The translations under genes were made by a program, and so were the position numbers. A stretch of 64,000 bases of DNA from Paludibacteraceae bacterium (GTDB lineage Bacteria; Bacteroidota; Bacteroidia; Bacteroidales; Paludibacteraceae). This document shows, in pieces, positions 3,151 through 54,049 of the stretch. Below the pieces are notes generated by a model, which had not been told where the DNA came from, did not search any database, and worked only from the letters and a program-made list of their open reading frames with translations. Position 1 is the first letter of the stretch. Each line of letters opens with the position of its first letter. The stretch lies in NCBI GenBank assembly GCA_045587145.1, contig JAZNBO010000038.1:4275-68274 (forward strand), in the 5' to 3' direction.

Positions 3151-3258
3151 GGCGCATAGCGCCGTGTAGAGTGGTGTAGAATCGTTTAGAATAGTGTAGA
3201 ATTGTACAACGCTACACAATACTACACAACACTACACAATGCTACACAAAATTGAAAA
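3151..3258. repeat. rnf intercistronic element copy C (with GGCGCATAGCGCC mini-hairpin)
   Basis: Near-identical to copies A and B. Confidence 0.9.
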
Positions 3259-5150: not shown

Positions 5151-5176
5151 CGCAAAATTGCTAAAACGAAAACAAT

Positions 5177-7750
5177 ATGAACATGAAAATAGATTGGAAG
5201 AAGATTCTGCCATACGCCGTGGCAATTGTGGCATTCGTGGCAGTGGCGATGATTTATTGCGCTCCTGTATTGGAGGGCAAAGTGCTAGTACAAGGTGATG
5301 TGAACAACTGGAAAGGTGCTGCACAAGAGGCACGTACTTTCTACGACGAGCATGGTACACGTACATGGTGGACCAACTCTATGTTTGGCGGTATGCCTAC
5401 CTACCAGATTACAGGTAGCTTGCCATCTGGTGAAGTGCGCAATGGTATGGCAAAGATCGCTCACCTCGGCATGGAAGGCGGATGGGAAGCCATCGGTATC
5501 ATCTTTGCCTACTTCTTCGGATTCTTCCTCTTGCTTCGTTGTTTTAAGGTCAATCCATGGCTGAGTATCATTGGTGGTTTTGCGATAGGATTCTCGACTT
5601 ATTTCTTTTTGATTATTCCTGCGGGACATATCACCAAGGCTATGGCACTTGGTTTCCTGGCACCCGTTATAGGTGGATTCTATGCTATCTTCCGCAAACA
5701 ATATTGGTTGGGCGCTCCACTCATGGTGCTATACGGTATTCTGAGTATCACTCTCCACCCACAGATGACCTATTATATCTTCATGCTTATTGGTATTATG
5801 GCATGTGCAGAATTGTACATCCATATCAAGGAGAAAGCGTGGAAAGACTTGGGTATATCTGTTGGCGTAGTAGCACTCAGTTTGTTGCTCATCGTGGGTA
5901 CCAAACTCAGTTGGCTCGAAATGAACCAAAACTACCTCAAAGAAACCATGCGTGGTGGACACTCGGAACTGAGAGGCGATGAGGCGAAAGGCGAAAAGGC
6001 GAAAGGCGGAGGTTTAGACTTGGACTACGCTACCGCATGGAGTTATGGTGTGGATGAAACAATGACTTTCCTTATCCCTAACTGGGAAGGTGGTGCGAGC
6101 GGATATAATGTGGGCGAGAAGTCGCAACTTTGCGAGACGATGAAACAGAATGGCGTACCCAAACGTTCTGCCGAACAGTTCTGTGGGCAAGTGCCTACCT
6201 ATCGTGGAGAGAAAGCCTTTACGAGTGGTCCTGTATATATGGGTGCTATTATTTGTTTCCTCTTTGTACTCGGATTGCTGATTGTGAGCGGTCCATACAA
6301 ATGGGCACTGCTTGTAGCTACACTATTCTCCGTTGCATTGGCATGGGGTAGAAATATGATGTGGCTCACAGAACTCTTCTTCAACTACTTCCCAATGTAC
6401 AACAAGTTCCGCGCCGTGGAGAGTATCCTTGTAGTGGCAGAGATCACAATGCCATTGCTCGGTATCATGGCATTGCAACAAGTAGTAGAGAAGAAAATAG
6501 CATGGGATAAGCTAAGAATAAGCATCCTTACCGCTGCTGGTATCACAGGTGGTTTATGCCTCATATTTGCTTTGTTTGGTGCTGCGGTAGATGTAACCAG
6601 TAGTTACGACGGCCAATGGGTAAGCCAAGTGCCTGCATGGCTCAAAGATGCTATCTACGATGAGCGTGTAGCCATGATCAAAGCTGATGCTTGGCGCTCA
6701 CTGATATTTATCGTACTTGGTGCAGGATTGGTATATTGGTATAGTTGGCAGGCTATGAGGCGAGAAGGCGATAAGGCAATGAGGAAATGGACTATTGGTT
6801 TTTATGCACTCCTCGCTGCGCTCGTGCTCGCCGATATGATTCCAGTGAATAAGCGTTTCTTTGGAAATAATAACTTTGTAAAAGCCAAAGATGCTGAACG
6901 ATATTTTGCTATTCAGCCATACGAGGAGCAGATTTTAGAGGATGAGTCGTATTACCGTGTATTGAACTTGGCGACAAATACTTTTAATGATGCACGCACA
7001 AGTTATCGATTGAAATCTATCGGTGGTTATTCGGCTGCAAAATTGCGTCGTTACCAAGATTTGATAGATGAGCATATTTCTAAAGAAATGAATCCGCTGA
7101 TGCAAACGGTGATGCGTACGCAGGGCTTTATGATACCAGATGAGAATGCTGGCAAGGATTTCCCTGTACTGAATATGCTCAATATGAAGTACGCAGTCAT
7201 GCCATTGCAAGGAGGACAGCAAGTACCCGTTATGAACCCGTATGCGATGGGCAATTGTTGGTTTGTGGACGAGGTAATATTGGTAGATACGCCTGATGAG
7301 GAGTGCGCTGCGTTGAGAACGTTGGATTTGCACAAACAGGCGGTGGCTGATAAGAAGTTTGCGGAGGTATTGGATATTACTAAACCCGAGGTGACACCAT
7401 TGATGGCATTTGATGAGAATGTGATCGAGTTGACCTCTTATGCGCCAAACTGCTTGGAGTATGCGGCTATGACCGAGCAAAACAAGGTGGCAGTATTCTC
7501 TGAGATTTACTATCCATATGATTGGCACTTGTATTTGGTAAATGCGAATGGCGAGCAAGTAGAAATTCCTCTTGCACGAGTGAATTATACTTTACGTGCA
7601 GCCGTTATCCCTGCGGGCGCACATCAATTGCGTATGGTCTTTGAACCACATGCTTTGAAGACCGATAAAGCATGCATGGCTATTCTTATTCTTGCATTGC
7701 TTCTGAGCGTAGGTGCTTTAACCTCTCCTTTGTGGAGAAAACAGAAATAA
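5177..7750 (+). CDS. YfhO-family polytopic membrane protein (GT-C-like glycosyltransferase candidate)
   Basis: 857 aa; many TM helices in the N-terminal two thirds, soluble C-terminal domain, final TM; N-terminus typical of Bacteroidota YfhO proteins. Confidence 0.7.
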   Translation: MNMKIDWKKILPYAVAIVAFVAVAMIYCAPVLEGKVLVQGDVNNWKGAAQEARTFYDEHGTRTWWTNSMFGGMPTYQITGSLPSGEVRNGMAKIAHLGMEGGWEAIGIIFAYFFGFFLLLRCFKVNPWLSIIGGFAIGFSTYFFLIIPAGHITKAMALGFLAPVIGGFYAIFRKQYWLGAPLMVLYGILSITLHPQMTYYIFMLIGIMACAELYIHIKEKAWKDLGISVGVVALSLLLIVGTKLSWLEMNQNYLKETMRGGHSELRGDEAKGEKAKGGGLDLDYATAWSYGVDETMTFLIPNWEGGASGYNVGEKSQLCETMKQNGVPKRSAEQFCGQVPTYRGEKAFTSGPVYMGAIICFLFVLGLLIVSGPYKWALLVATLFSVALAWGRNMMWLTELFFNYFPMYNKFRAVESILVVAEITMPLLGIMALQQVVEKKIAWDKLRISILTAAGITGGLCLIFALFGAAVDVTSSYDGQWVSQVPAWLKDAIYDERVAMIKADAWRSLIFIVLGAGLVYWYSWQAMRREGDKAMRKWTIGFYALLAALVLADMIPVNKRFFGNNNFVKAKDAERYFAIQPYEEQILEDESYYRVLNLATNTFNDARTSYRLKSIGGYSAAKLRRYQDLIDEHISKEMNPLMQTVMRTQGFMIPDENAGKDFPVLNMLNMKYAVMPLQGGQQVPVMNPYAMGNCWFVDEVILVDTPDEECAALRTLDLHKQAVADKKFAEVLDITKPEVTPLMAFDENVIELTSYAPNCLEYAAMTEQNKVAVFSEIYYPYDWHLYLVNANGEQVEIPLARVNYTLRAAVIPAGAHQLRMVFEPHALKTDKACMAILILALLLSVGALTSPLWRKQK
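5971..6012. repeat. GGCGAAAGG-type 7-8-bp array in frame inside yfhO (encodes GDEAKGEKAKGGG)
   Basis: GAGAGGCGATGAGGCGAAAGGCGAAAAGGCGAAAGGCGGAGG read directly. Confidence 0.85.
6751..6790. repeat. Degenerate GGCGAnAAGG-type array in frame inside yfhO (encodes AMRREGDKAMRKW)
   Basis: GGCTATGAGGCGAGAAGGCGATAAGGCAATGAGGAAATGG. Confidence 0.6.
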
Positions 7751-12587: not shown

Positions 12588-12637
12588 TGTTTAGAGTTGT
12601 TTAGAATCGTTTAGAGTTGTTTAGAATTGTGTAAAAA
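12588..12637. repeat. Perfectly 10-bp-phased GTTTAGA(G/A)T array x4-5
   Basis: TGTTTAGAGT TGTTTAGAAT CGTTTAGAGT TGTTTAGAAT TGTGTAAAAA; encodes the GT4 C-terminus YTILNNSKRF and its stop. Confidence 0.9.
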
Positions 12638-15570: not shown

Positions 15571-15600
15571 AGAAAAATCGCCTCAATTGGCGATTTTTCT
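15571..15600. terminator. Intrinsic terminator after the lipoprotein gene
   Basis: AGAAAAATCGCC-TCAATT-GGCGATTTTTCT. Confidence 0.8.
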
Positions 15601-16352: not shown

Positions 16353-16395
16353 TTGGTGTAGGGTTGTTTAGAATTGTTTAGAGTAGTTTAAAGAG
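16353..16395. repeat. 10-bp-phased GTGTAG/GTTTAG array after the ruvA stop
   Basis: TTGGTGTAGGGTTGTTTAGAATTGTTTAGAGTAGTTTAAAGAG. Confidence 0.8.
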
Positions 16396-16410: not shown

Positions 16411-19400
16411 GTGAAAAAACTGATAATCATATTACTGGCGATTGGCAATGGACTATTGGCAATTGCGCAAGAAGATTCGTTGGCAATGGTAGTAGATACT
16501 GCCATCATGGCACCTATGCAAGTAAAAGGAGTAGGAGTGAACAACTACGACGACTTGAATAGAGTGCATAGTAGTTTGGATCTGCAAGACCCGGAGAATG
16601 TCAATACAACGATCGAGTATGACCCCCTAACCGGTGGTTACGTCGTGCGCACGCGCATGGGCGATGTGGAGATTGCTACTCCCTACATGATGACTGCAGA
16701 GGAGTATCGTACCTACTCCGAAAAACAAGAGATGGGGAAATTCTGGCAAGGGAAAATCAGCGAAGTAGAACACGATAACGAGAGCAAATTTGATATTACC
16801 GATATGAAATTCAATATCGGACCTGCCGATAAAGTTTTTGGTCCTGGCGGCGTACAAGTGAAACTGCAAGGATCGGCTGAACTGCTCTTTGGTTTTAAAC
16901 ACCAATTCATAGACAACCCCGCGCTGACACAACGTTCGCGAAACAACAATATCTTTGACTTTGACGAGAAAATCCAATTGAGCGTGAACGGAAAAGTAGG
17001 TGAGAAACTGAACTTCAACATGAGTTACAACACCGAAGCATCGTTCAGCTTTGACCAACAGAACCTAAAACTGAACTTCAAGGGTCAAGAAGATGATATT
17101 ATCCAATCCTTAGAGGCGGGTAATGTATCCATGACCCTAAACAACAGTTTGATACGCGGTAGTAGCGCACTATTCGGCGTGAAAGCAGATATGAAATTCG
17201 GCAAACTGCGTGTGCAAGCATTGGTGTCGCAGCAGAACTCAGAAAGCCAAACTGTCAGCAGTAAAGGCGGTGCACAGACAACGAACTTTGAGGTGCCAAT
17301 TGACAGTTACGATGAGAATCGACATTTCTTCCTGAGTTACTATTTCCGTGATAACTATGAGCAAGCAATGAAAGCATTGCCATACATCGCGAGCGGCGTG
17401 ACTATCAATCGCATTGAGGTGTGGGTGACAAATAAGCGAGCAAACTACGACGAGGCACGCAATATCGTAGCATTGACCGACTTGGGAGAGTACGACCCAG
17501 TGCATATCCAAAACATACAGTGGAACACTGTATCAGGTGCGCGCACTCCATATAACAAAGCCAATACTCTCTACGAGGTATTGACACAAAGCAATCCTGC
17601 GGTACGTGACATTCAGCAGGTGAGCAGCGTGATGCAATCCATAGGAATGGACGTGAGCGAAGACTATGAGAAAATAGAATCAGCACGCCTATTAAGCAGT
17701 AGTGAATATACACTGAATGCAGCATTAGGTTACATCTCTCTGAAAGCAGCGTTGAACCAAGATGAGGTCTTGGCAGTAGCATACGAATATACCTACGCTG
17801 GACAAGTATATCAAGTGGGTGAGTTCTCAACCGATGCCGGAGAATCGCTGAAAGCACCCAACGCCCTGCTGCTGAAAATGCTGAAAAGTAGCAACAATGC
17901 ACCTATCGCAAAAAACAAAGGCACATGGGACCTCATGATGAAAAACATCTATTCCATCGGAGCAAGTCAGATGAGTAGCGATAAGTTTGAGTTATACGTG
18001 CAATACCGCAACGACTCTGTGGGTACGGATATGCAGTACCTCATGGAAGGTGCTATCAAAGGCAAACAGTTGATTCGCGTAATGGGCATGGATAGATTGG
18101 ATTCGCGCAACAATGCCTCACCCGATGGACGATTTGACTATGTGGAAGGATACACAGCATTGTCGTCTTCGGGACGAATCATTTTCCCCGTATTGGAGCC
18201 TTTTGGTAGTCACTTGAAACGCGAGATCGGTGATCCGAAGGTGGCAGAAAAATATGTCTTCCAAGAGTTGTATGACTCCACCCTAGTGAGCGCGCAAGAA
18301 TATACCGAGAAGAATAAGTTTGCCTTGGTCGGTAAATACAAAGGCTCATCGGGTAACGAGATTCGCCTAAACGCAATGAACGTTCCCCGCGGAAGTGTGG
18401 TGGTAACAGCCGGTGGCGCGACTCTGATAGAGAACGTGGATTACACCGTGGACTATACCATGGGAACCGTGACGATATTGAATCAGTCCATCTTGGAGTC
18501 TGGAACGAATGTCGATGTAAAATTGGAGAATCAAGCCCTATTCTCTATGCAACGTAAATCACTATTCGGTGCGAACTTGCAATATGAGTTTAATAAGGAC
18601 TTTACGATTGGCGGTACCATTATGCACTTGAACGAACGTCCAATCACGACCAAAGTTAATACAGGTAGCGAGCCGTTGGCAAATACTGTGTGGGGCGTGA
18701 ATGCGAATTGGAAGACGGAAATGCAATGGCTGACCCTGCTCATTGACAAAGTGCCATGGATCAATGCTACCGCACCTTCTACCTTCCAAATCAATGCGGA
18801 GTTTGCTCACCTGATACCAGGTCACACCAAAGAAGTGGGACAAGTAGGTACAGCATACATTGACGACTTTGAAGCAACTAAGACCAACATCGATATTCAT
18901 TATCCAAGTTATTGGCGATTGGCTTCTACACCGCGTTCGGATAATTTCCCTGAGTATGCATTGAGCGATTCCGTAGCCTACAACAAGAATCGTGCGCTTT
19001 TGGCGTGGTACACAGTGGACCCTATCTTTGGTAAACCAAGTAGCAACACGCCTAAACACATTAAGGATAACATAGAACTCATGTGCGACCATCGCACACG
19101 TACTGTGTATGAGCAAGAGGTGTACCCTAACAAACAAGTGATGGCAAATGCCGATACACGATTGCCCGTACTGAACCTGAGTTACTACCCCGATGAGCGT
19201 GGTCCGTACAATATCTCTGCTGATGAGATAGGTCGTGACGGTAAATTGACAAATCCACAAGATCGTTGGGGTGGTATCATGCGAAAGTTGGATAACACCG
19301 ATTTTGAGAAAGCCAATATAGAGTATATCGAATTTTGGTTAATGGACCCATTCTTGACCAATCCAGATGCGGCATATACAGGTGGTGACTTATACATAGA

Positions 19401-23915: not shown

Positions 23916-24398
23916 ATGTTTAAGGTTGGTATTATCGGCCCTGAGTCCACAGGCAAGAGTACGCTTGCACAGTATTTGGCCACTCAACATGGTGGATTGT
24001 TCGTTTCCGAGCATGCGCGCGTATATTTAGAGGAGCGAGCGCGCGAGCACGGGAGCGCATACGCGTACACGCGCGAAGATGTGTTGCGCATAGCAGAATA
24101 TCAGGTAGAACAACTTCGTGAACTGTCTCAGCAAGAGGGAGTGGCGTTTTTTGATACAGAACTGATAATCACAAAAGTGTGGTTTGAGCACAAATATGGT
24201 GAGTGTCCTTCGTTTGTAGAAGATGCCTTGCACCAATATCCGATGGACGTGTACTTGTTGTGTTATCCCGATTTGGAGTGGGAACCTGACCCCGTGCGCG
24301 AGAACCCTAATATACGCGAGTACCTATTTGATTGGTATGAGCGTGAGATTCAAGCATTAGACATACCGTATTATATTGTTCGGCATAGTGTAGGGTAG
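23916..24398 (+). CDS. P-loop ATPase/kinase (NadR C-terminal-domain-like)
   Basis: Walker A GPESTGKST; 160 aa. Confidence 0.55.
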   Translation: MFKVGIIGPESTGKSTLAQYLATQHGGLFVSEHARVYLEERAREHGSAYAYTREDVLRIAEYQVEQLRELSQQEGVAFFDTELIITKVWFEHKYGECPSFVEDALHQYPMDVYLLCYPDLEWEPDPVRENPNIREYLFDWYEREIQALDIPYYIVRHSVG

Positions 24399-24452
24399 GG
24401 TTGTATAGGGTAGTGTAGGATGGTGTAGAGTTGTATAAGGTAGTGCAAGATG
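24387..24452. repeat. 10-bp-phased GTGTAGG/GTATAGG array; supplies the last codons (HSVG) and stop of the ATPase gene
   Basis: AGTGTAGGGTAGGGTTGTATAGGGTAGTGTAGGATGGTGTAGAGTTGTATAAGGTAGTGCAAGATGG. Confidence 0.8.
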
Positions 24453-24470
24453 GAAATAGTATAAATAACA

Positions 24471-27506: not shown

Positions 27507-28349
27507 CTATAACTCAATATGGTGAGCGGTGATAGGTTCGGAGAGGAAGATGGATGCCGACTCGGAGAATTTTGTGGCAGACTCAGTGGTGAGGTAGGTG
27601 ACAGCTTGTTTTTCTCCCTTTTGAGCGTGCTCAGCGATGTCGGGATGGCGTAGAAGGTAGTCTTGCAGGCTGTTGGCTACGATTGCCCCTTGTGCAATAA
27701 CAGATATGTGGCTATTGGCGATTGGCGATTGGCTATGGGAAATGGAAGAAAGAAAGGCTTCAATCTTGGGTTGGAGTAGGGGGTAGTGGGTGCAGCCGAG
27801 AATGATAGTGTCAATCAGTGGATCGCGAGTGAGGAGCTCGGTGAGGTATTTCTCAACGAAATAATCAGCACCAGAATGCAGATGTTCACCTGATTCAATC
27901 AGAGGTACCCACATCGGACACGCTTGTTGGGTGATGGTTAGGGTGGGGTCCTGTTTAAGCAACTCGATGATATAACTCTCGGAGGCTACCGTGCCAGGGG
28001 TAGCAAGAACGCCAATATGCTTGGTGCGAGTGCGCTGCGGTACAACTTCTACCGTAGGGCGGATAACACCTAAGACACGAAGCTCATCAGGATTGATATT
28101 GCGCTGTTGGATAGTGCGAAGTGCCTTAGCACTAGCCGTATTACAAGCGAGAATGATAAGATTGCAGCCTTGTTGGTGGAGATAATTAACAGCTTGAAGG
28201 GTATATTCGTAAATGACATCAAATGAGCGTGTTCCGTATGGCGCACGAGCATTATCGCCCAGGTAGAGATAATCGTACTGGGGGAGATGTTGGCGAATGT
28301 GATTGAGAATCGTTAGTCCGCCGTAACCACTGTCAAATATACCTATCAT
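27507..28349 (-). CDS. murI: Glutamate racemase
   Basis: IGIFDSGYGGLT, LACNTAS and LGCTHYP motifs; ATG 28349 preferred, since the tracked ORF's 41-aa N-terminal extension runs through the promoter. Confidence 0.9.
   Translation of the reverse strand: MIGIFDSGYGGLTILNHIRQHLPQYDYLYLGDNARAPYGTRSFDVIYEYTLQAVNYLHQQGCNLIILACNTASAKALRTIQQRNINPDELRVLGVIRPTVEVVPQRTRTKHIGVLATPGTVASESYIIELLKQDPTLTITQQACPMWVPLIESGEHLHSGADYFVEKYLTELLTRDPLIDTIILGCTHYPLLQPKIEAFLSSISHSQSPIANSHISVIAQGAIVANSLQDYLLRHPDIAEHAQKGEKQAVTYLTTESATKFSESASIFLSEPITAHHIEL
27709..27739. repeat. GGCTATTG/GGCGATTG 8-bp array in frame inside murI (encodes HSQSPIANSHIS)
   Basis: TGGCTATTGGCGATTGGCGATTGGCTATGGG. Confidence 0.85.
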
Positions 28350-28352
28350 TTG

Positions 28353-28386
28353 ATGTAAAGTGTAAGGTGTAAAGTGTAAAGGCACG
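28353..28386. repeat. 7-bp TGTAAAG/TGTAAGG array in the murI 5' leader
   Basis: ATGTAAAGTGTAAGGTGTAAAGTGTAAAGGCACGG. Confidence 0.85.
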
Positions 28387-28397
28387 GATTTTTCGCC

Positions 28398-28435
28398 GCA
28401 AAGGTACAAAAAATAAATAAAATGCGCAAATAATT
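28398..28435 (-). promoter_or_regulatory. Bacteroidota promoter for murI
   Basis: Plus-strand CAAAGGTA at 28399-28406; the -33 region overlaps the dnaN -33. Confidence 0.65.
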
Positions 28436-28466
28436 TGCATAAATGGTATTTTTTTTGTAACTTTGC
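28432..28466 (+). promoter_or_regulatory. Bacteroidota promoter for dnaN
   Basis: ATTTGCATAAATGG, spacer, then TAACTTTG at 28458-28465. Confidence 0.7.
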
Positions 28467-28505
28467 AGGCAAAATTAAAAAGTATATAATTAAAACTAGA
28501 AGAAT

Positions 28506-29627
28506 ATGAAATTTAATGTATCAAGCTCGAAATTGTTTGCTCAATTGCAAGCAGTGAGTCGTGTGATTGCTGCAAAAAATAGTTTGCAGATTTTGGAAGC
28601 CGTGTTGTTTGATCTCGAAGGCGATGTACTGACCTTAACCGCGTCTGATAGCGAGACAACTATCCGTACTTCTTTGACCGTGGAAGACGCACAAGGTGCA
28701 GGAAAAGTGGCTGTGGGTGGCAAATTGCTATTGGAAACATTGAAAGAGTTCTCTGAGCAACCGCTGACATTCCAAATAAATGAACAAAACTTTGGTTTGA
28801 ATATTACTAGCGCAAATGGTACATATAGTTTCGTAGGTGCCAATGGCTTGGAGTATCCAGAAATGCCTGTGGAAGATGGAGATAATACATTCTCAATGCC
28901 TTCTAACGTGCTGCTTGATGCTATCAATAAAACGATATTCTGCACCGCAGAAGATCCATTGCGCCCAGTGATGAATGGTATCTATTTTGATCTCAATGAG
29001 GAGAAGATAGCATTGGTAGCGACAGATGCACATCGTTTGGTTCGTTATACCAATGAAAGCGTAAAGGGTTCGCAAGCAGTAAGTTTTATTTTGCCAAAAA
29101 AACCTGCACAATTGCTCAAACAAGTGCTGCAAAAAGAGGCTGAGGAAGTGAAAGTGACCTTTGGTCAAAAAAACGCCAAGTTTGAGTTTGGCTCAACGGT
29201 GATGATTTGCCGCCAAATTGAGGGCCGTTTCCCTAATTACAATGCAGTAATCCCACAAAACAATACAAACAAGGTGTTGGTAGATCGTCAAACAATCGTC
29301 AATGCTTGCAAACGTGTAGCCGTATTTGCACACACGGGTACTAGTTTGTTGAAATTGGCGTTGAGCGAGAACCAAATCAAGATTTCAGCACAAGATATTG
29401 ACTTCTCTACTTCGGCAGAGGAAACAATTAGTTGTGATTACAACGGAATGCCAATGGCAATCGGTTTTAAGGCTCCTTTCTTGATTGAGATCTTGTCGAA
29501 TGTGGCTTCACAAGAAGTGGTGCTTCAATTGGCTGACCCTGCTCGTGCTGGTTTGATCTTGCCAGCTGAGAATGAAGAGGGACAAGATTTGTTGATCCTA
29601 TTAATGCCAATGCTTTTGAACGATTGA
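28506..29627 (+). CDS. dnaN: DNA polymerase III beta sliding clamp
   Basis: 373 aa; MKFNVSSSKLFAQLQAVSRVI N-terminus; three-domain length; LMPMLLN C-terminus. Confidence 0.9.
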   Translation: MKFNVSSSKLFAQLQAVSRVIAAKNSLQILEAVLFDLEGDVLTLTASDSETTIRTSLTVEDAQGAGKVAVGGKLLLETLKEFSEQPLTFQINEQNFGLNITSANGTYSFVGANGLEYPEMPVEDGDNTFSMPSNVLLDAINKTIFCTAEDPLRPVMNGIYFDLNEEKIALVATDAHRLVRYTNESVKGSQAVSFILPKKPAQLLKQVLQKEAEEVKVTFGQKNAKFEFGSTVMICRQIEGRFPNYNAVIPQNNTNKVLVDRQTIVNACKRVAVFAHTGTSLLKLALSENQIKISAQDIDFSTSAEETISCDYNGMPMAIGFKAPFLIEILSNVASQEVVLQLADPARAGLILPAENEEGQDLLILLMPMLLND

Positions 29628-38878: not shown

Positions 38879-40241
38879 ATTAAAACAAACTCTTCGCGAT
38901 TCAGCTATTGCACGTTGGACAGTTCTTGTCCTTGTGGCATCGATGATGTTCTTTGCATATATGTTTGTGGACATTCTCTCTCCGTTGGCTTCTGTTCTCA
39001 ATGACACACTCGGTTGGGATCAAGGTGTCTTCGGAACGTATGCCTCTGCGGAGTATATTCTTTGTGTCTTCGGTTTCCTCATTTTTGCAGGAATCATTCT
39101 GGATAAGATGGGCGTTCGCTTCACGGGCTTGCTTTCTGCGGGCTTGATGGTGCTTGGCGCATCAATCAAGTATATTGGTATCTCCGACTGGTTTGATGCT
39201 AACAATATCGTTTGGCTCAACTCTTGGTGGACGGCTATGCCAGGTTCTGCTAAGATGGCTGCATTCGGCTTTATGATTTTCGGTTGTGGTTGCGAGATGG
39301 CTGGTACAACTGTAAGTAAGATTCTTGCTAAGTGGTTCAAAGGCAAAGAGATGGCGCTTGCTATGGGACTTGAAATGGCTATCGCACGTATTGGTGTGTT
39401 TGCTGCCATGGCGTTTTCTCCTGCTATCAGCGAGCATTTTGCTGTGAATGGCAATCCATCAGTAGTTGCTTCGCTGTTGTTTGCGGCTCTTCTGCTCGTA
39501 GTTGGCTTGCTCAACTTCTTCGTATTTACTATTATGGATACCAAGTTTGACAAGCAACTTGTGGCTATTGGTGAGGCAACTGAGATGAAAGATCCAGAGG
39601 ATGAGTTCCATGTGTCTGATCTTGGTAAGATTTTCAGCAGCAAGATGTTCTGGATTATTGCACTCTTGTGCGTGTTGTACTATTCTGCTATTTTCCCATT
39701 CCAACGCTTTGCTACCAACTTCCTTGAGGAGACTTTGGCGATTAGTAATGCTGAGGCATCTGGTCTATTTAAGTGGTTCCCTATCTTGGCAATGGTACTT
39801 ACTCCATTCCTCGGTATGTTCATTGATTATAAGGGAAAAGGTGCTTCTATGATGATGATTGGTGCGATTATTATGGTTATTTGCCATAGTATTTTCGCAT
39901 TTGTATTGCCTGCATTCCCAAGTAAAGGACTTGCTCTCTGTACTATTTTGGTGTTGGGCGTGAGCTTCTCGTTGGTGCCTGCGTCAATGTGGCCATCTGT
40001 TCCAAAGATTATCGATGAGAAGATTTTAGGTTCTGCATATTGCCTCATTTTCTGGGTGCAAAACATTGGTTTGTGTCTTGTACCTATGCTGATTGGTAAA
40101 CTCCGTGTTTCTACCGATGGTTATGTAGTGCCTATGATTGTCTTTGCATCATTTGGTGTGATCGCTTTTGTATTGAGCCTTGCATTGAAGGTGGAGGATA
40201 AGAAGAAAGGCTATGGATTGGAGCTTCCTAATAAGAAATAA
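38868..40241 (+). CDS. MFS-type transporter
   Basis: ~12 predicted TM segments; ATG 38868 preferred, since the tracked 42-aa N-terminal extension is basic and non-membrane and overlaps the small ORF. Confidence 0.7.
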   Translation: MVQQLKQTLRDSAIARWTVLVLVASMMFFAYMFVDILSPLASVLNDTLGWDQGVFGTYASAEYILCVFGFLIFAGIILDKMGVRFTGLLSAGLMVLGASIKYIGISDWFDANNIVWLNSWWTAMPGSAKMAAFGFMIFGCGCEMAGTTVSKILAKWFKGKEMALAMGLEMAIARIGVFAAMAFSPAISEHFAVNGNPSVVASLLFAALLLVVGLLNFFVFTIMDTKFDKQLVAIGEATEMKDPEDEFHVSDLGKIFSSKMFWIIALLCVLYYSAIFPFQRFATNFLEETLAISNAEASGLFKWFPILAMVLTPFLGMFIDYKGKGASMMMIGAIIMVICHSIFAFVLPAFPSKGLALCTILVLGVSFSLVPASMWPSVPKIIDEKILGSAYCLIFWVQNIGLCLVPMLIGKLRVSTDGYVVPMIVFASFGVIAFVLSLALKVEDKKKGYGLELPNKK

Positions 40242-41514
40242 GGAGTCCATCCTTGTGAGTACGGATACACGCAATCTGCCTGCAGGTTGCGTGTTCTTTG
40301 CGCTTCATGGGGCGAATTTTGATGGCAATAAGTTTGCTAAGCAGGCACTCGAAAGCGGTGCTACATTGGCAGTGATTGATAATCCTGAATATGCATTGGC
40401 AGAAGGAACTCTATTGGTACCCAATACGTTGCTGGCTTTGCAAGATTTGGCACGCGCATGGCGTCGTGAATTAGGACTACCTATCATCGGTATTACTGGT
40501 ACCAACGGCAAGACAACCACCAAAGAGCTCTTGGCAGCAGTTCTTTCCACGAAATATAATATCCACTATACGCAGGGAAACCTCAATAATCAAATAGGTG
40601 TACCCCTTACCTTATTACAAATCTCGCGTGCGCACGAGATGGCTATCGTGGAGATGGGTGCTTCACATCCGGGTGATATTAAAGAACTCGTGGATATAGC
40701 AGAGCCTAACTATGGGTTGATTACTAATGTCGGTCGCGCTCATTTAGAAGGATTTGGCTCGTTTGAAGGCGTGCAACGCACCAAGCAAGAACTCTACGAC
40801 TACCTCGTTGCTCATAATGGTACTATCTTCCGCAATGTCGACAACACTTACCTCATGCGCATGCATGAGAATGCTCTTGCCTCTCGCCTTAGCGGGGTCC
40901 CCGAAAACGCTTGTGGCGTTTTGGGGTGCTCTTCGCCTCTCGCCAGCGGGGTCCCCGAAAAATCTGCTGATTTTTGGGGTGCTCTATCGCCTATTACCTA
41001 CACCACAGGCACAATGCCATCTGGCACAAATCTTGTTGGAGGATATAATGCGGAGAATGTGTCTGCTGCTTTGTGTGTAGGTGCGTATTTTGGGGTTTCG
41101 AAGGAGCAAGCGTTGGAGGCTGTTCGCCGTTATGTGCCAACAAATAATCGTTCACAAGCCATGCAAACGGCTAACAACCAGTTGATAGTAGATGCTTATA
41201 ATGCGAATCCGACATCTATGCAGGCGGCTATCAACGCATTCAAAGGCGATACATACATTCTTGGTGCGATGCGTGAGTTGGGAGAATACTCGCACTTGGA
41301 ACACCAGAATGTGGTGAATATGTTGGCTGAGCGCAAGGCTGATTGGGTCTTTCTCGTAGGAGAAGAGTACTTGCAGACGACATCGCCATATCCTGTGTAT
41401 GAGAATGTAGAGCAATTACATGAATACTTGGAGGCGAATCCGCTGAAAGGTAAAAATATCCTTCTCAAAGGCTCTCGCTCTACTAAAATGGAAAAATTGT
41501 TAGATATACTATAA
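40213..41514 (+). CDS. murF: UDP-N-acetylmuramoyl-tripeptide--D-alanyl-D-alanine ligase
   Basis: VSTDTR, GITGTNGKTTTKE, DAYNANP and LKGSR motifs. Confidence 0.85.
   Translation: MDWSFLIRNKESILVSTDTRNLPAGCVFFALHGANFDGNKFAKQALESGATLAVIDNPEYALAEGTLLVPNTLLALQDLARAWRRELGLPIIGITGTNGKTTTKELLAAVLSTKYNIHYTQGNLNNQIGVPLTLLQISRAHEMAIVEMGASHPGDIKELVDIAEPNYGLITNVGRAHLEGFGSFEGVQRTKQELYDYLVAHNGTIFRNVDNTYLMRMHENALASRLSGVPENACGVLGCSSPLASGVPEKSADFWGALSPITYTTGTMPSGTNLVGGYNAENVSAALCVGAYFGVSKEQALEAVRRYVPTNNRSQAMQTANNQLIVDAYNANPTSMQAAINAFKGDTYILGAMRELGEYSHLEHQNVVNMLAERKADWVFLVGEEYLQTTSPYPVYENVEQLHEYLEANPLKGKNILLKGSRSTKMEKLLDIL
40873..40991. repeat. In-frame tandem 54-bp module (2 full units plus a partial third), each unit containing a terminator-like hairpin
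   Basis: GCTCTTGCCTCTCGCC..GCGGGGTCCCCGAAAACGC-TTGT-GGCGTTTTGGGGT and GCTCTTCGCCTCTCGCC..GCGGGGTCCCCGAAAAATC-TGCT-GATTTTTGGGGT, then GCTCTATCGCC. Confidence 0.9.
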
Positions 41515-43050: not shown

Positions 43051-43058
43051 GTTATATA

Positions 43059-43108
43059 TAGCCTATCGCCTATCGCCAATAGCTAATAGCCAATAGCCTA
43101 TCGCCAAT
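43059..43108. repeat. GCCTATCGCC/AATAGCC 8-bp-type array (complement orientation of the GGCnATnGG family)
   Basis: TAGCCTATCGCCTATCGCCAATAGCTAATAGCCAATAGCCTATCGCCAAT. Confidence 0.85.
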
Positions 43109-43113
43109 AATCC

Positions 43114-43150
43114 AACCTCCTCCCCCAGGGGGGGGGAGGTCGGGAGGGGT
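43114..43150. other. C-run/G-run palindrome just 3' of the glyQS stop
   Basis: CCTCCTCCCCC-AGG-GGGGGGGAGG, then TCGGGAGGGGTC. Confidence 0.6.
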
Positions 43151-51173: not shown

Positions 51174-52193
51174 CTATATTTCCCATTGTTCGAGGGTAGT
51201 GGTGAGTTGGTCGAATGTCTTTACCTTACTCTTTTCACGAACTTCATTAATCTGCTGATTGACAGCAGCGTCGTATGCCTCCGTTTCTACGCGGCGAATG
51301 ACACCGAGGGCGATTGGCAATTGGCAATTGGCAATTGGCGATGGGTCTTCTTGTCCCATCATAGCAAGCATGCGATGGAGGGTAGGGTCTTGCAGTGTGG
51401 CATCGTGGGTGAGTACGCGTGGGTCTTCGGCTGGCACTACGATGAGTTGAGGAATCAATCCCTGTGAGTAGTCTAATGCTAAGCCTTTGTCTTTCGCTTT
51501 GCCGAAAATCATTTTTTCTCCATGGCGCAGAATGATACTGCGTTCAGCACGCTCTTCGCGGTCTGCAATCCATGAGTGGGTACCATTGTTGAAAATCACG
51601 CAGTTTACCAAACACTCAATCACACTAGCACCTTTGTGTTGAGACGCCTGTACCATGCAGTCCACTGTGGTAGGCATATCTACGTCCAATGTGCGAGCGA
51701 AGAACGTACCGCGTGCGCCAAATACCAATTCGGCAGGAATAAAGGGACGCTCTACGGTACCAAATGGACTGGACTTGCTGACAAATCCCTTGGGTGAAGT
51801 AGGTGAGTATTGACCTTTGGTCAAACCATAAATGCGGTTGTTGAAGAGGCAGATGTTCAAATCTACATTGCGGCGGATCTCATGGATAAAGTGATTACCA
51901 CCAATAGCGAGGCAGTCGCCATCGCCTGTCATTTGCCAAACGCTGAGTTCTGGGTGGCTGGTTTTTACGCCAGTAGCAATAGCTCCACCGCGACCATGAA
52001 TGGTATTAAAGCCGTAGGTGTTGAGGTAGTGAGGCATACGAGATGAACAACCGATACCTGATATCACGGCTACTTGGTGTGTTGGTACGCCTACTTGTGC
52101 CATGGCTTTTTGTAACGCCATGCAGATAGCATGATCACCACAACCAGGGCAGAACTTTACATATTGATTACTCTTAAATTGACTTGCTTCCAT
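51174..52193 (-). CDS. korB: 2-oxoglutarate/2-oxoacid:ferredoxin oxidoreductase beta (TPP-binding) subunit
   Basis: CPGCGDH and TGDGDCLAIGGNH motifs; ATG 52193 lies 2 nt after the korA stop, so the tracked longer ORF overlaps korA. Confidence 0.85.
   Translation of the reverse strand: MEASQFKSNQYVKFCPGCGDHAICMALQKAMAQVGVPTHQVAVISGIGCSSRMPHYLNTYGFNTIHGRGGAIATGVKTSHPELSVWQMTGDGDCLAIGGNHFIHEIRRNVDLNICLFNNRIYGLTKGQYSPTSPKGFVSKSSPFGTVERPFIPAELVFGARGTFFARTLDVDMPTTVDCMVQASQHKGASVIECLVNCVIFNNGTHSWIADREERAERSIILRHGEKMIFGKAKDKGLALDYSQGLIPQLIVVPAEDPRVLTHDATLQDPTLHRMLAMMGQEDPSPIANCQLPIALGVIRRVETEAYDAAVNQQINEVREKSKVKTFDQLTTTLEQWEI
51309..51345. repeat. GGCAATTG 8-bp array in frame inside korB (encodes SPIANCQLPIA)
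   Basis: GGCGATTGGCAATTGGCAATTGGCAATTGGCGATGGG. Confidence 0.9.
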
Positions 52194-52195
52194 AA

Positions 52196-54049
52196 TTATC
52201 GATTTTGTATAAAGTTGATAATTCTTTTTATGACAAAAGGTTGAGCGGTAATTTCGTTGTATTGCTCCAGATGTAGTCCTTCGAACTTCGAGCGCAAGTA
52301 GGCTGCAAATTGTCCTTGATTGAGCTCGCACACAATCACACGCTTATATTTGCGCAATACCTCTTCTGTGTTAGCAGGTAGTGGGTTGATATAATTGAAC
52401 TGTGCCAATGCGCAACCCGTAGCTTCTGCAGCAGCGTGCAAGTGGCCTTCGGTGCTTCCCCAACCCACGAGCAGTGTGTCGCTATCAGCGTTGCCTTGTA
52501 CTTGTAGCAGAGGTATCTGCTGACCGATCTGTTGTATTTTAGCTTGGCGAATCTTCACCATTCGCTCGTGGTTCTCTGGGTTGGTAGAGATAATACCCTT
52601 CTCTGCATCGCGCTCAAGACCTATATTGCGGTGCTCATACCCTTCCATGCCTGGATACGCCCAATAGCGCACACCGCGCTCATCACGCAATGCAGGGTTA
52701 TAGTTACCTTTGAGTTCCTCGGGTACTCCTTGTGGCTCAATGGTAGGCAGATCACTCAGCTGTGGTATGCGCCAGAGTCCAGTACCATTCGCCAGGAAGG
52801 TGTCAGTCAATAGTACTACAGGCGTCATGTTCTCTAGTGCAATCTTGCAAGCCTGATATGCATAGTCGAAGCAGTTTGCTGATGTGGAGGCAGCTATCAC
52901 CACGGCTGGGCATTCGCCATTGCGTCCGTAGATAGCTTGCATGAGGTCTGTTTGTTCGGTTTTGGTAGGCAGACCCGTAGAAGGTCCACCACGTTGAACA
53001 TCAATAACGACAAGTGGCAACTCTGCCATCACAGCCAATCCGATAGCTTCGCCTTTGAGACTCAGACCTGGACCAGATGTGCTAGTAGCAGCCAAATCGC
53101 CAGCGAAAGCAGCACCGATAGCGGTACATACGCCGGCAATCTCATCTTCAGCTTGTACTACCATTACACCCATATCCTTGCGAGCAGCAAGTTCGTGCAT
53201 AATATCTGTGGCAGGAGTAATAGGGTAGGAACCCAAGAATAGTCGCTTTCCGCATTTTTCTGCTGCGGCGATGAGTCCCCAAGCTGTAGCTTTGTTGCCT
53301 GCGATAGAGGTATATGTGCCTTTTGGGAGCTCGCGGGATTTCTCAACGTTCATGGTTTGGATATTGAGCGCGAGGTTGTTGCCATAGTTATAGCCATCGG
53401 TGAGCACCTTGACATTGGGGGCGATGAGTTGTGGTTTCTTGTGGAATTTGCTCTCCAAAAAAGCAATAGCTTTGTCCACAGGACGGTTGAAAAGCCAACA
53501 AACCAATCCCAATGCAAACATATTTCGCGATTTAAGGATAGACTTATTGTCTAATCCCATGTCCTTGAGGCTATCTTTGGTAAGTTGAGTGAGGGCTACA
53601 GGGATAATCTGTACCGATTCGGGTAATCCCAACTCTGTAAATGGATTGTCGGTTTGATAGAGTGCTTTCTCCAAATCTTTAGCAGAAAGAGAGTCGGTGT
53701 CCACGATAATGACAGCATCGCGTTTGAACATCGAATCGCTGGCTTCCCACTTTGCGCCTGCTTGGTTGAATTTGCTACCTAAGGCACATACTTTGAGGGC
53801 AGCAGCGTTCATGGCTACTAACACATCGGCTTGATCACCAGGGGTATAGACACCCGTACCTAATTGAACTTGGAAACCGCTGACACCACCCAAAGTGCCT
53901 TGAGGGGCGCGAATTTCGGCAGGAAAATCGGGCAGCGTACTAATCTCGTTGCCTAGTATTGCACTCAATGAGGAGAACATTGTACCGGTAAGTTGCATAC
54001 CGTCTCCTGAGTCACCGCAAAAGCGGATTACTATACGTTGTTTTTGCAT
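52196..54049 (-). CDS. korA: 2-oxoglutarate/2-oxoacid:ferredoxin oxidoreductase alpha subunit
   Basis: 617 aa; N-terminal gamma-like domain fused to the alpha (pyrimidine-binding) domain; GSYPITPAT motif. Confidence 0.85.
   Translation of the reverse strand: MQKQRIVIRFCGDSGDGMQLTGTMFSSLSAILGNEISTLPDFPAEIRAPQGTLGGVSGFQVQLGTGVYTPGDQADVLVAMNAAALKVCALGSKFNQAGAKWEASDSMFKRDAVIIVDTDSLSAKDLEKALYQTDNPFTELGLPESVQIIPVALTQLTKDSLKDMGLDNKSILKSRNMFALGLVCWLFNRPVDKAIAFLESKFHKKPQLIAPNVKVLTDGYNYGNNLALNIQTMNVEKSRELPKGTYTSIAGNKATAWGLIAAAEKCGKRLFLGSYPITPATDIMHELAARKDMGVMVVQAEDEIAGVCTAIGAAFAGDLAATSTSGPGLSLKGEAIGLAVMAELPLVVIDVQRGGPSTGLPTKTEQTDLMQAIYGRNGECPAVVIAASTSANCFDYAYQACKIALENMTPVVLLTDTFLANGTGLWRIPQLSDLPTIEPQGVPEELKGNYNPALRDERGVRYWAYPGMEGYEHRNIGLERDAEKGIISTNPENHERMVKIRQAKIQQIGQQIPLLQVQGNADSDTLLVGWGSTEGHLHAAAEATGCALAQFNYINPLPANTEEVLRKYKRVIVCELNQGQFAAYLRSKFEGLHLEQYNEITAQPFVIKRIINFIQNR

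Follow-up and report, generated by a model that had tools for sequence, protein, structure and literature searches.

An in-frame, hypervariable segment of murF in a Paludibacteraceae bacterium probably holds two copies of a dispersed palindromic repeat

In this study, we analysed a repeat-built segment inside murF, an essential cell-wall gene, in a 64-kb stretch of Paludibacteraceae DNA (the window). In all likelihood the segment holds two copies, from subfamilies A and B, of a dispersed palindromic repeat of ~40 nt that lie within a slippage-prone TCGCCNN array at a site of the protein where almost any sequence is tolerated, and it is not a gene-specific regulatory structure. The evidence comes from the make-up of the segment, from murF alleles of close relatives, and from copies of the same module in other genes, genomes and metagenomes.

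Results

The murF gene and its repeat-built segment

The product of the host gene is a three-domain Mur ligase, with Mur_ligase, Mur_ligase_M and Mur_ligase_C all above the Pfam cut-off and a phmmer match to the MurF structure 1GG4 (E 8e-53). The gene and the parts of its variable segment are listed below.

40213..41514, + strand: murF (UDP-MurNAc-tripeptide--D-Ala-D-Ala ligase), 433 aa, intact ORF (ORF list, Pfam, phmmer, AlphaFold/Foldseek)
40873..40998, + strand: hypervariable repeat-built segment, residues A221-T262, heptamer repeats and two hairpin modules
40877..40890, + strand: heptamer stretch 1, TTGCCTC TCGCCTT (from the sequence; array without modules also in allele L007; heptamer family across the window)
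40891..40931, + strand: hairpin module A, 41 nt, AGC-GGGGTCCCC-GAAAACGC-TTGTG-GCGTTTT-GGGG-TGCTC, hairpin proper 40899-40926
40932..40944, + strand: heptamer stretch 2, TTCGCCTC TCGCC, the spacer between the modules (from the sequence; identical string TGCTCTTCGCCTCTCGCC at locus L057)
40945..40984, + strand: hairpin module B, 40 nt, AGC-GGGGTCCCC-GAAAAATC-TGCT-GATTTTT-GGGG-TGCTC, hairpin proper 40953-40979
40985..40998, + strand: heptamer stretch 3, TATCGCC TATTACC, continuing into conserved codons of the YTTG strand (common to alleles L001 and L007)

Short TCGCCNN heptamer repeats and two palindromic modules of ~40 nt together make up the segment. A reading made from the letters of the window (the sequence-only reading) had described it as two in-frame 54-bp units plus 11 bp, a description borne out by the sequence and by Tandem Repeats Finder, which reported a period of 54 across 40872-40992 (2.2 copies, 84% matches, 7% indels) with a score of 159, the highest of all tandem repeats in the window. 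The two units of 54 nt, or 18 codons, occupy 40873-40926 and 40927-40980, encode ALASRLSGVPENACGVLG and CSSPLASGVPEKSADFWG, and are followed by GCTCTATCGCC (ALSPI...). Alignment of the units at the DNA level requires several small indels, which happen to offset one another so that the spacing comes to 54 nt. Heptamer arrays are numerous in the window, several of them inside other ORFs, and the string TGCTCTTCGCCTCTCGCC of stretch 2 also follows a module at the unrelated locus L057 (position 5029).

The general layout of the module, over ~40 nt, is AGC-GGGGTCCCC-GAAAA-stem/loop-TTTT-GGGG-TGCTC. In murF the hairpins run from CCCCGAAAACGC to GCGTTTTGGGG in unit 1 (40899-40926) and from CCCCGAAAAATC to GATTTTTGGGG in unit 2 (40953-40979), each with a stem of 4+7 pairs and a bulged G, and upper-stem pairs 5 and 6 are C:G/G:C in unit 1 and A:T/T:A in unit 2; both 11-bp bulged hairpins and their two compensated pairs are exactly as first reported. 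Folded singly, unit 1 gave -19.8 kcal/mol and unit 2 -16.5 kcal/mol (z of about -2.9 for both), whereas the entire 141-nt segment reached a z of only -1.9; the individual hairpins, and not the 141-nt whole, are the meaningful folding units. Beyond the hairpin the inverted ends consist of AGC...GCT only (3 bp), and direct GGGGT repeats flank the module stem, though not in every class. The window has two matches to the pattern CCCCGAAAA-N6-20-TTTTGGGG, against none in any of 100 shuffles, and no module copy besides those in murF was found in the 64 kb. Eleven of the 12 reading frames of modules A and B are devoid of stop codons.

As had been proposed, the insertion comes after the N.DN..YL..M helix and before the LVGGYN motif. 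What is left of that region outside the repeats is indeed short, this MurF lineage being without ~35-45 beta-rich residues that are present just downstream of the site in other Bacteroidota-type MurFs. An AlphaFold model of MurF from a 79-sequence alignment had an overall pLDDT of 92.4, replacing an earlier model from 35 sequences of 84-96% identity (pLDDT 45), and its best Foldseek matches were the MurF structures 4QF5 and 3ZL8 (TM 0.79). Its sole low-confidence, structure-less stretch comprises residues about 227-260 (pLDDT 45-60 at ~231-260). The ~40 residues encoded by the segment are thereby predicted to be a disordered excursion leading from helix 212-226 to strand 261-263, a position that fits the host fold as a surface loop in MurF, the one host modelled. 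Location in such a floppy surface loop would be the reason that the hairpin repeats are tolerated.

murF alleles in close relatives

Comparison of MurFs with >82% identity revealed that all of their length variation falls at segment 40873..40998, with 35 distinct variants in 120 clusters, and that the protein is otherwise >90% conserved around this single hypervariable site. The states of the site in close relatives include no repeats; heptamer, octamer or decamer arrays; one module; and two modules. Nine murF alleles were compared at the DNA level. The two-module form recurs in three more independent assemblies from other samples, which differ by SNPs (L002, L003 and L004), and the allele of a related lineage (L001/P0072) carries module B alone. 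At the same site L007 has a TCGCCNN heptamer array and no modules, and the repeats there are octamers in L005 and decamers in L008. The encoded protein measures 396 aa in an allele with no repeat and 406 aa in a heptamer allele, against 433 aa with two modules. The ORF is intact in all of the two-module and one-module alleles compared. Modules were present in four of the 120 protein clusters and the other 116 had no hairpin at the site; persistence in the four could be due to drift or to selection. Phase variation of murF by heptamer slippage was considered and set aside, since the gene is essential and every allele seen is in frame.

Concentration of 35 variants at one site, together with a second repeat-colonised site near residue 60 in some alleles, might be taken to indicate that variation of the MurF surface is itself selected, for example as an escape from a peptidoglycan-synthesis inhibitor of a phage or competitor, with the modules serving as one source of sequence. 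Enzymes of the Mur pathway are targets of some phage lysis proteins, which lends such selection some appeal. Nevertheless, we regard it as improbable: the variants simply translate 7-, 8- and 10-nt repeats in any frame in which these happen to lie, the region is predicted to be disordered, and the presence of the same repeats in many unrelated cytoplasmic enzymes and in intergenic DNA makes a pressure specific to MurF unnecessary.

A dispersed family of modules

Other copies of GCGGGGTCCCCGAAAA, a prospect raised by the sequence-only reading, were searched for and found in scans of both public genomes and metagenomes. The genome scan identified at least 137 module copies at 120 or more loci, against ~1 expected, and the metagenome scan a further 65, so that the two together hold >200 copies (~1 expected). 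Several copies can occur per MAG (e.g., JAZNPR, JAFYWK and CAAFXN), and tandem arrays were identified at L036 (3 copies, period 42), L037, L039, L017, L122 and L125. Among the 137 listed copies there are 99 distinct interiors, and the stem is extended by at least 3 bp in 52% of interiors versus 11% of shuffled ones; a variable yet self-complementary upper stem is a trait of the whole family. In Paludibacteraceae the modules are flanked by the same AGC and TGCTCT ends and by heptamers. The left flank of the module is constant (TCGCC(T)(T)AGC), and modules often sit in the loops of other hairpins. No filled/empty DNA pair with exact module junctions was identified among the compared loci outside murF.

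Database and literature searches did not match the module to a described family. At the Rfam gathering threshold no family overlapped the module at 18 module-bearing loci, and a permissive Rfam search of the class-d locus L113 found nothing. A permissive match of Guanidine-II to the murF segment (17 bits, where the gathering score is 32; E 0.42) was on the minus, and wrong, strand and was attributed to chance. A literature search yielded no match to the motif string and nothing relevant on repeats in Paludibacteraceae.

Unit 1 is identical to copies elsewhere at 41 of 42 positions and unit 2 at 41 of 41, compared with 35 of 42 between the two units; each thus has matches of 98–100% identity in other genes and genomes. 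Module A is 41/42 identical to copies in a chorismate synthase gene (L057) and at L018, shares its interior type with the copy in the GlnRS gene (L097), and carries the interior most common in the metagenome scan (11 of 65). The core of module B is identical to those of L061, L083 (GluRS) and L106, as well as to eight of the 65 metagenome copies. Interior CGCTCGTGGCG of unit 1 was found elsewhere at least 16 times and interior ATCTGCTGAT of unit 2 at least 11 times. By sequence identity, units 1 and 2 belong to two different, widely dispersed subfamilies, the two commonest. Since the units resemble distant copies more than each other, their stem differences are best read as differences between subfamilies and not as a product of selection within murF, and the lack of a hairpin in 116 of 120 close clusters argues strongly against a conserved murF regulatory structure. 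The earlier proposal that the stem had been kept by compensatory evolution within murF is therefore one that we do not uphold.

These comparisons make it quite improbable that a 54-bp unit was duplicated within murF and its stem pairs compensated under selection for an RNA or DNA hairpin, such as an attenuator or terminator within the gene. There is indeed a tandem structure of period 54, with two compensated pairs and a shared bulge, both hairpins are stable by their z values, and the order of A-tract, stem and T-tract is loosely terminator-like. Each unit, however, differs less from copies at unrelated loci, which it matches almost exactly, than from its neighbour, and elsewhere the two stem types represent the subfamilies found most often. 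Modules in ORFs occur in both orientations with a 21:3 bias and are antisense in most hosts, which leaves no consistent role on the mRNA strand, and the essential C-terminal domain of MurF is encoded downstream of the hairpins. The A-tract, stem and T-tract symmetry is shared with Rho-independent bidirectional terminators; unlike those, the T-run of the module is base-paired within the helix, clamped by CCCC/GGGG and followed by TGCTCT instead of a free U-run, and the module lies mid-ORF, in either orientation, and is missing from most orthologues. A terminator consensus scan flagged neither the murF hairpins nor the hairpin at 15571-15600 taken as reference, and the likeness of the murF hairpins to terminators is only generic. 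The two stable hairpins may still affect the murF mRNA through pausing, RNase cleavage or partial termination.

Modules in other host genes

Long open frames contain 24 of the 65 metagenome copies, and all module copies in ORFs are stop-free in the frame of the host. In GlnRS (L097) the module is a clean insertion of 14 aa (42 nt) relative to E. coli GlnRS 1O0B, adjoining native GEGE codons that read CTCGCCTTCGCC on the module strand, and chorismate synthase (AroC, L057) has two module insertions relative to 5Z9A. Additional hosts confirmed by Pfam are GluRS (L083), a histidine-kinase ATPase domain (HATPase) and an MBOAT protein, while a ValRS-like frame was recognised by sequence alone. In Paludibacteraceae the composite of heptamers and module recurs in frame, and in both orientations, inside unrelated housekeeping genes, among them those for GlnRS, chorismate synthase and GluRS and the ValRS-like frame.

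The same insertions bear on whether the modules are translated at all. Each murF hairpin is flanked by direct GGGGT repeats whose offsets of 29 and 28 nt add up to 57 nt, which is divisible by three, as would suit programmed hopping between the repeats that bypasses or removes the modules (compare T4 gene 60 and the mitochondrial byp elements). We consider this very improbable, since the one-module allele L001 and the 42-nt GlnRS insertion are in frame only by read-through, where skipping 28 or 29 nt would break the frame, the ORF copies are without stops in the host frame, and no stop codon follows a take-off site. Lastly, assembly of metagenomes from short reads can lose or gain tandem-repeat units, but a wrong repeat number, spurious insertion or chimera, and with it the suspicion that the duplication was an assembly error, has a negligible chance of being correct, given the identical two-module architecture in the window and in L002, L003 and L004 from different samples with SNPs, the one-module allele of a related lineage and ORFs intact throughout.

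Discussion

Comparison with known repeats

The closest analogue of the module is the Rickettsia palindromic elements (RPEs; Ogata et al. 2000, summarised in PMC10969869), which are elements of ~100-150 bp in obligate intracellular Rickettsia; the module would be an analogue of these and not a member. Both are dispersed palindromic families that lie in frame in many unrelated, often essential genes, and both are translated as an extra peptide where the host fold permits, which for the module is a prediction for MurF. Neither is known to be accompanied by a transposase. Unlike RPEs, the module is 40–42 nt long, belongs to free-living gut Paludibacteraceae, is accompanied by TCGCCNN arrays, and has a variable upper stem and a hairpin base common to other phyla. 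The comparison is one of size and behaviour, and size alone sets the module apart from the RPE families.

Similarities also exist to REP, BIME and REPIN sequences, which RAYT (Y1 HUH) transposases mobilise, and to palindrome-associated elements derived from IS200/IS605. All are high-copy, imperfect palindromes 20-40 nt in length that often lie in tandem or nested. As in REP/REPIN, the module adjoins a fixed short flank, shows no obvious target duplication, has an orientation bias and lacks coding capacity of its own. However, REPs are extragenic by definition and have a GTAG-type head, whereas many module copies are intragenic and their head is GGGGTCCCC. Intragenic MITEs (ERIC, BOX and cyanobacterial MITEs; PMC10969869) resemble the module as small non-autonomous hairpin repeats that can be read through by the host ORF; the module is much shorter than typical MITEs, and at the loci compared no terminal inverted repeats past AGC/GCT and no target-site duplication were seen.

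The accompanying heptamers have counterparts of their own. Heptanucleotide arrays figure among long simple sequence repeats (LSSRs; Mrazek 2007, cited in PMC4679880), as do the STRR and TAACTGA repeats of cyanobacteria, Beggiatoaceae and some Bacteroidetes. The TCGCCNN and TGGCNAT arrays beside the modules are classic 7-nt tandem repeats of this kind, with unit number and type varying between strains. Heptamer arrays are usually intergenic, because seven is not a multiple of three, but here they are in frame in several ORFs and, unlike LSSRs generally, flank a hairpin element or act as its landing pad.

Possible origin and spread

If the murF segment is made of two dispersed repeats in a slippage-prone array, modules A and B would have arrived through separate insertion or conversion events, B probably earlier than A because a relative carries B alone, and would have entered an array that was growing and shrinking by replication slippage. 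With murF being essential, only alleles whose overall length is divisible by three would survive. The ribosome would read directly through the modules to produce the peptides SGVPENACGVLG and SGVPEKSADFWG, and the module would behave as selfish or neutral DNA in the manner of RPEs. Mobility of the module is deduced purely from its distribution. Speculatively, spread may occur by sequence-guided insertion of ssDNA, similar to that of IS200/IS605 or REP/RAYT, or by template switching, an idea that stems from the constant left flank, the GEGE-adjacent site in GlnRS, the location in loops and the 21:3 orientation bias.

The hairpin base GGGGTCCCCGAAAA..TTTTGGGG also occurs in Clostridia, Bacillales and Nitrospirota, and many genomes have it as the 5' hairpin of an apparent conserved small RNA, a hint that a function or recognition factor is involved in addition to selfishness. 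Conceivably, the GGGGTCCCC-GAAAA-stem-TTTT-GGGG hairpin serves an undescribed insertion system that spans phyla, as its recognition or mobile module. The same hairpin base would then form the 5' stem-loop of a conserved, unannotated structured RNA of ~110 nt in gut Clostridia and Bacteroidales, and would also be copied as a ~40-nt unit beside TCGCC-type heptamers and into the loops of other hairpins, including in frame into essential genes. We consider this wider proposal doubtful. Were the small RNA or a protein that binds its hairpin to drive the copying, this would be a novel mechanism by which genomes acquire short palindromes and could serve as a tractable model for the spread of RPE-like elements, and the link to the possible unannotated small RNA deserves dedicated study.

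Significance

Covariation between adjacent hairpins can simply reflect the presence of different members of a repeat family. For annotation and strain typing, it is relevant that hypervariable in-frame segments of this type make proteins of otherwise >90% identical strains differ in length by as many as ~50 residues. Our findings indicate that selfish DNA within protein-coding genes, best known from the RPEs of intracellular Rickettsia, also occurs in abundant free-living gut Bacteroidota, as a much smaller element and in essential genes that include murF, glnS, gltX and aroC. Polymorphic sites with zero, one or two modules in public metagenomes could provide a route, through comparison of filled with empty sites, to the question of how RPE-like elements move.

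Composition of the murF repeat segment

Examination of the sequence of positions 40500-41400 revealed the in-frame tandem hairpin units of 54 bp that the sequence-only reading had described within murF; the stems of the units do differ by two compensated pairs, and each does carry the bulged G. That observation is confirmed, while the interpretation placed on it is supported in part only.

40213-41514, forward strand: murF, an open reading frame of 433 residues that matches all three Mur-ligase Pfam domains
From 40873, forward strand: two 18-codon units of 54 nt, encoding ALASRLSGVPENACGVLG and CSSPLASGVPEKSADFWG, and the beginning of a third

Tandem Repeats Finder gave this repeat (period 54, 2.2 copies, 84% matches) the highest score in the window, 159, and the pattern CCCCGAAAA-N-TTTTGGGG occurred twice versus not at all in 100 shuffles. 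Folded singly, each hairpin is stable (-19.8 and -16.5 kcal/mol, z about -2.9). Each unit thus combines heptamer repeats with a module of ~40 nt, AGC-GGGGTCCCC-GAAAA-[stem-loop]-TTTT-GGGG-TGCTC.

A variable site in MurF

MurF homologues at >82% identity are 396-449 residues long, and this variation lies at one site, from the N.DN..YL..M helix to the YTTGTMPSGT strand, plus a minor second site near residue 60. The main site has 35 distinct variants in 120 protein clusters, just four of which have the hairpin (two copies in three, a single copy in one). DNA was retrieved for nine murF alleles, whose main sites are as follows.

L009: no repeats (AGDLKTVA)
L007: heptamers alone (TTGCCTC TCGCCTT TCGCCTC TCGCCTC ATCGCCT ATTACCT)
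L005: octamer array ATCGCCTC, ~11 copies
L008 (P0004): decamer array CTACACAACT, of the family found in the window arrays 707-793, 1823-1908 and 3164-3249
L001: one module plus heptamers
Window, L002, L003 and L004: two modules plus heptamers

The two-module form is common to three independent assemblies with SNP differences, which rules out an assembly artefact. The second repeat-colonised site, in the N-terminal domain at residue about 60 (about 40390 in the window), has VYNTHRPTPIASSPLASSPNRL in allele P0072 and FAAYSQSPIAHSRI in P0003 versus YALAEGT in the window, the inserts being SPIAS/SPLAS heptamer read-outs as at the main site.

A first structural model of MurF, from a shallow alignment, was useless. 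A second, from an alignment of 79 sequences, had a pLDDT of 92.4 and a pTM of 0.89, and its top Foldseek matches were MurF structures (TM 0.79). Its sole low-confidence, structure-less stretch (residues about 227-260, pLDDT 45-60) is the repeat-encoded segment, flanked by a helix (212-226) and a strand (261-263). The impression that this region is short for a MurF was borne out, as alignment to more distant MurFs showed that this lineage has lost ~35-45 residues directly downstream of the repeat segment. The missing stretch (at residues about 263-270) is beta-rich, lies between the xYGx strand and TxLxGxYN, and is present in E. coli MurF and other Bacteroidota-type MurFs; on comparison with P0123-P0202, it is lacking in the window protein, P0016, P0021, P0121 and also P0155. 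Despite this loss, the model is confidently a MurF fold.

A dispersed module family

A scan for GGGGTCCCCGAAAA-N6-20-TTTTGGGG, with each species represented by a single genome, identified at least 120 loci with at least 137 copies, versus about one match expected by chance. Among the 137 copies listed there are 99 distinct interiors, 52% of which add 3 bp or more to the stem versus 11% of shuffled ones; the family as a whole is thus characterised by upper stems that vary yet are self-complementary. Copies in Paludibacteraceae MAGs share the murF arrangement (heptamers, AGC, module, TGCTCT, heptamers), and two MAGs, JAZNPR and JAZNRY, have modules elsewhere and a murF without one.

A metagenome scan with Paludibacteraceae-type module ends added 65 copies. 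The commonest interior among these, CGCTCGTGGCG (11 copies), is one loop base away from that of murF unit 1, and the second commonest, ATCTGCTGAT (8 copies), is identical to that of unit 2. Unit 1 matches copies elsewhere at 41/42 positions and unit 2 at 41/41, whereas the two units match each other at merely 35/42. Compensatory stem evolution within murF, as proposed from sequence only, was thus not upheld: the units belong to two subfamilies, and the "compensatory" difference is one between subfamilies.

No Rfam family covers the module, and its motif string does not occur in the searchable literature. In the Bacillales isolate Pullulanibacillus pueri (L036 2395-2512, L037, L039, L023, L084), modules form tandem arrays of up to 3 copies with a period of 42, set at many loci in a larger repeated element whose flanks are conserved; the family thus extends beyond MAGs and Bacteroidota. 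At another module-family locus, L087, stop-free G/C-rich repeats of the SLCREGRGGSSP type fuse RND-pump-like and outer-membrane-factor-like frames into a 1655-aa open frame. In L112 a module immediately precedes a partial tRNA 3' half, which is duplicated 155 bp apart.

Modules and repeats in other genes

Numerous copies lie within long open frames, on both strands. Glutaminyl-tRNA synthetase (GlnRS) has a clean insertion of 14 residues (42 nt), APQNATSVFGDPAA, between residues aligned to E. coli NYQ and GEGE, and chorismate synthase has two insertions. Pfam confirmed three more hosts: GluRS, a histidine-kinase ATPase domain and an MBOAT protein. A frame resembling ValRS was identified by sequence alone. 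At least 24 of the 65 metagenome copies are within frames of at least 150 residues, 21 of them antisense to the host gene. Stop codons are absent from 11 of the 12 frames of the two murF modules.

Heptamer arrays also occur within other window ORFs (5165-7747; a racemase-family gene, 27510-28520; a TPP-enzyme gene, 51177-52343); these are candidate insertions.

5974-6008, 6727-6777, 27709-27733, 51309-51339, 16436-16470: heptamer arrays (AGGCGAA, TGGCGAT, GGCAATT types) inside long open frames
43057-43150: TATAGCC/TATCGCC heptamer array, 7.6 copies, between rpsO and the glycyl-tRNA synthetase gene
707-793, 1823-1908, 3163-3249; also 12588-12630, 16364-16390, 24386-24453: paired inverted 10-nt repeat arrays

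Heptamer read-outs are RGDEAKGEKAKG and AMRREGDKA in an 861-aa ORF, SQSPIANSH in the Asp/Glu-racemase-family gene and SPIANCQLPIA in the TPP-enzyme gene; a 2495-aa ORF has its array in the signal-peptide region. The paired decamer arrays (GTGTAGAAT x4, then inverted CTACACAA x4) are located where divergently oriented open frames meet, and their family also occupies the murF variable site of L008. After the array at 43057-43150 comes a palindrome rich in G/C, CCTCCTCCCCCAGGGGGGGGGAGGTCGGGAGGGGTC, resembling the module-enclosing outer hairpin CCCTCCC..GGGAGGG..GGGGTGGGTC of other Bacteroidales genomes, here with no module inside.

Origin and spread

The murF modules are best read as copies of a palindromic repeat, selfish or neutral, at a permissive loop. 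Such a repeat would land in a slippage-prone heptamer array at this loop, in-frame outcomes alone would survive, and the ribosome would translate straight through the module. The left flank of the module is constant (TCGCC(T)(T)AGC), the GlnRS module adjoins the native GEGE codons (CTCGCCTTCGCC on the module strand), modules are frequently enclosed in the loop of another hairpin (CCCTCCC..GGGAGGG or GCGCGGCA..TGCCGCGC), and orientation within ORFs is biased 21:3. These clues fit spread by single-strand, sequence-guided insertion (IS200/IS605- or REP/RAYT-like) or by template switching.

The murF hairpins had also been likened to terminators. A consensus terminator scan flagged neither these hairpins nor the reference hairpin at 15571-15600. 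Where the module lies argues against such a function, as do the fact that it occurs in either orientation and its absence from most orthologues. Translational bypass is excluded by reading-frame arithmetic.

The murF module belongs with RPE/REP-like in-frame palindromic repeats. Its closest analogue is the Rickettsia palindromic elements (RPEs), in-frame insertions in many genes according to PMC10969869, although the module is far smaller, comes from another phylum and is tied to heptamer arrays. Such arrays are themselves a recognised type of simple sequence repeat (PMC4679880).

A candidate small RNA

The GGGGTCCCCGAAAA..TTTTGGGG hairpin also precedes a conserved unit of ~80 nt in numerous genomes of Clostridia and Bacteroidales.

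Clostridia: L113 5743-5850; L015, L020, L030, L032, L056, L076, L078, L085, L094, L100, L108; AGAGGAGGAGCA..GGAGYGA..hairpin..GUUUGUGMY-GACGAGG
Bacteroidales: L014, L021, L028, L053, L093, L102; AGAGCGGAGGCA..GUCGC..hairpin..GCGAC..UGCCGAACGCGA

The unit contains no ORF, has no Rfam match and often adjoins tRNA genes or RNase P RNA. Its long-range helix has 8 pairs with compensated changes, and the whole predicted structure has 11. Hairpin and unit together look like an unannotated small RNA, at present a candidate, that shares its hairpin base with the dispersed module copies.
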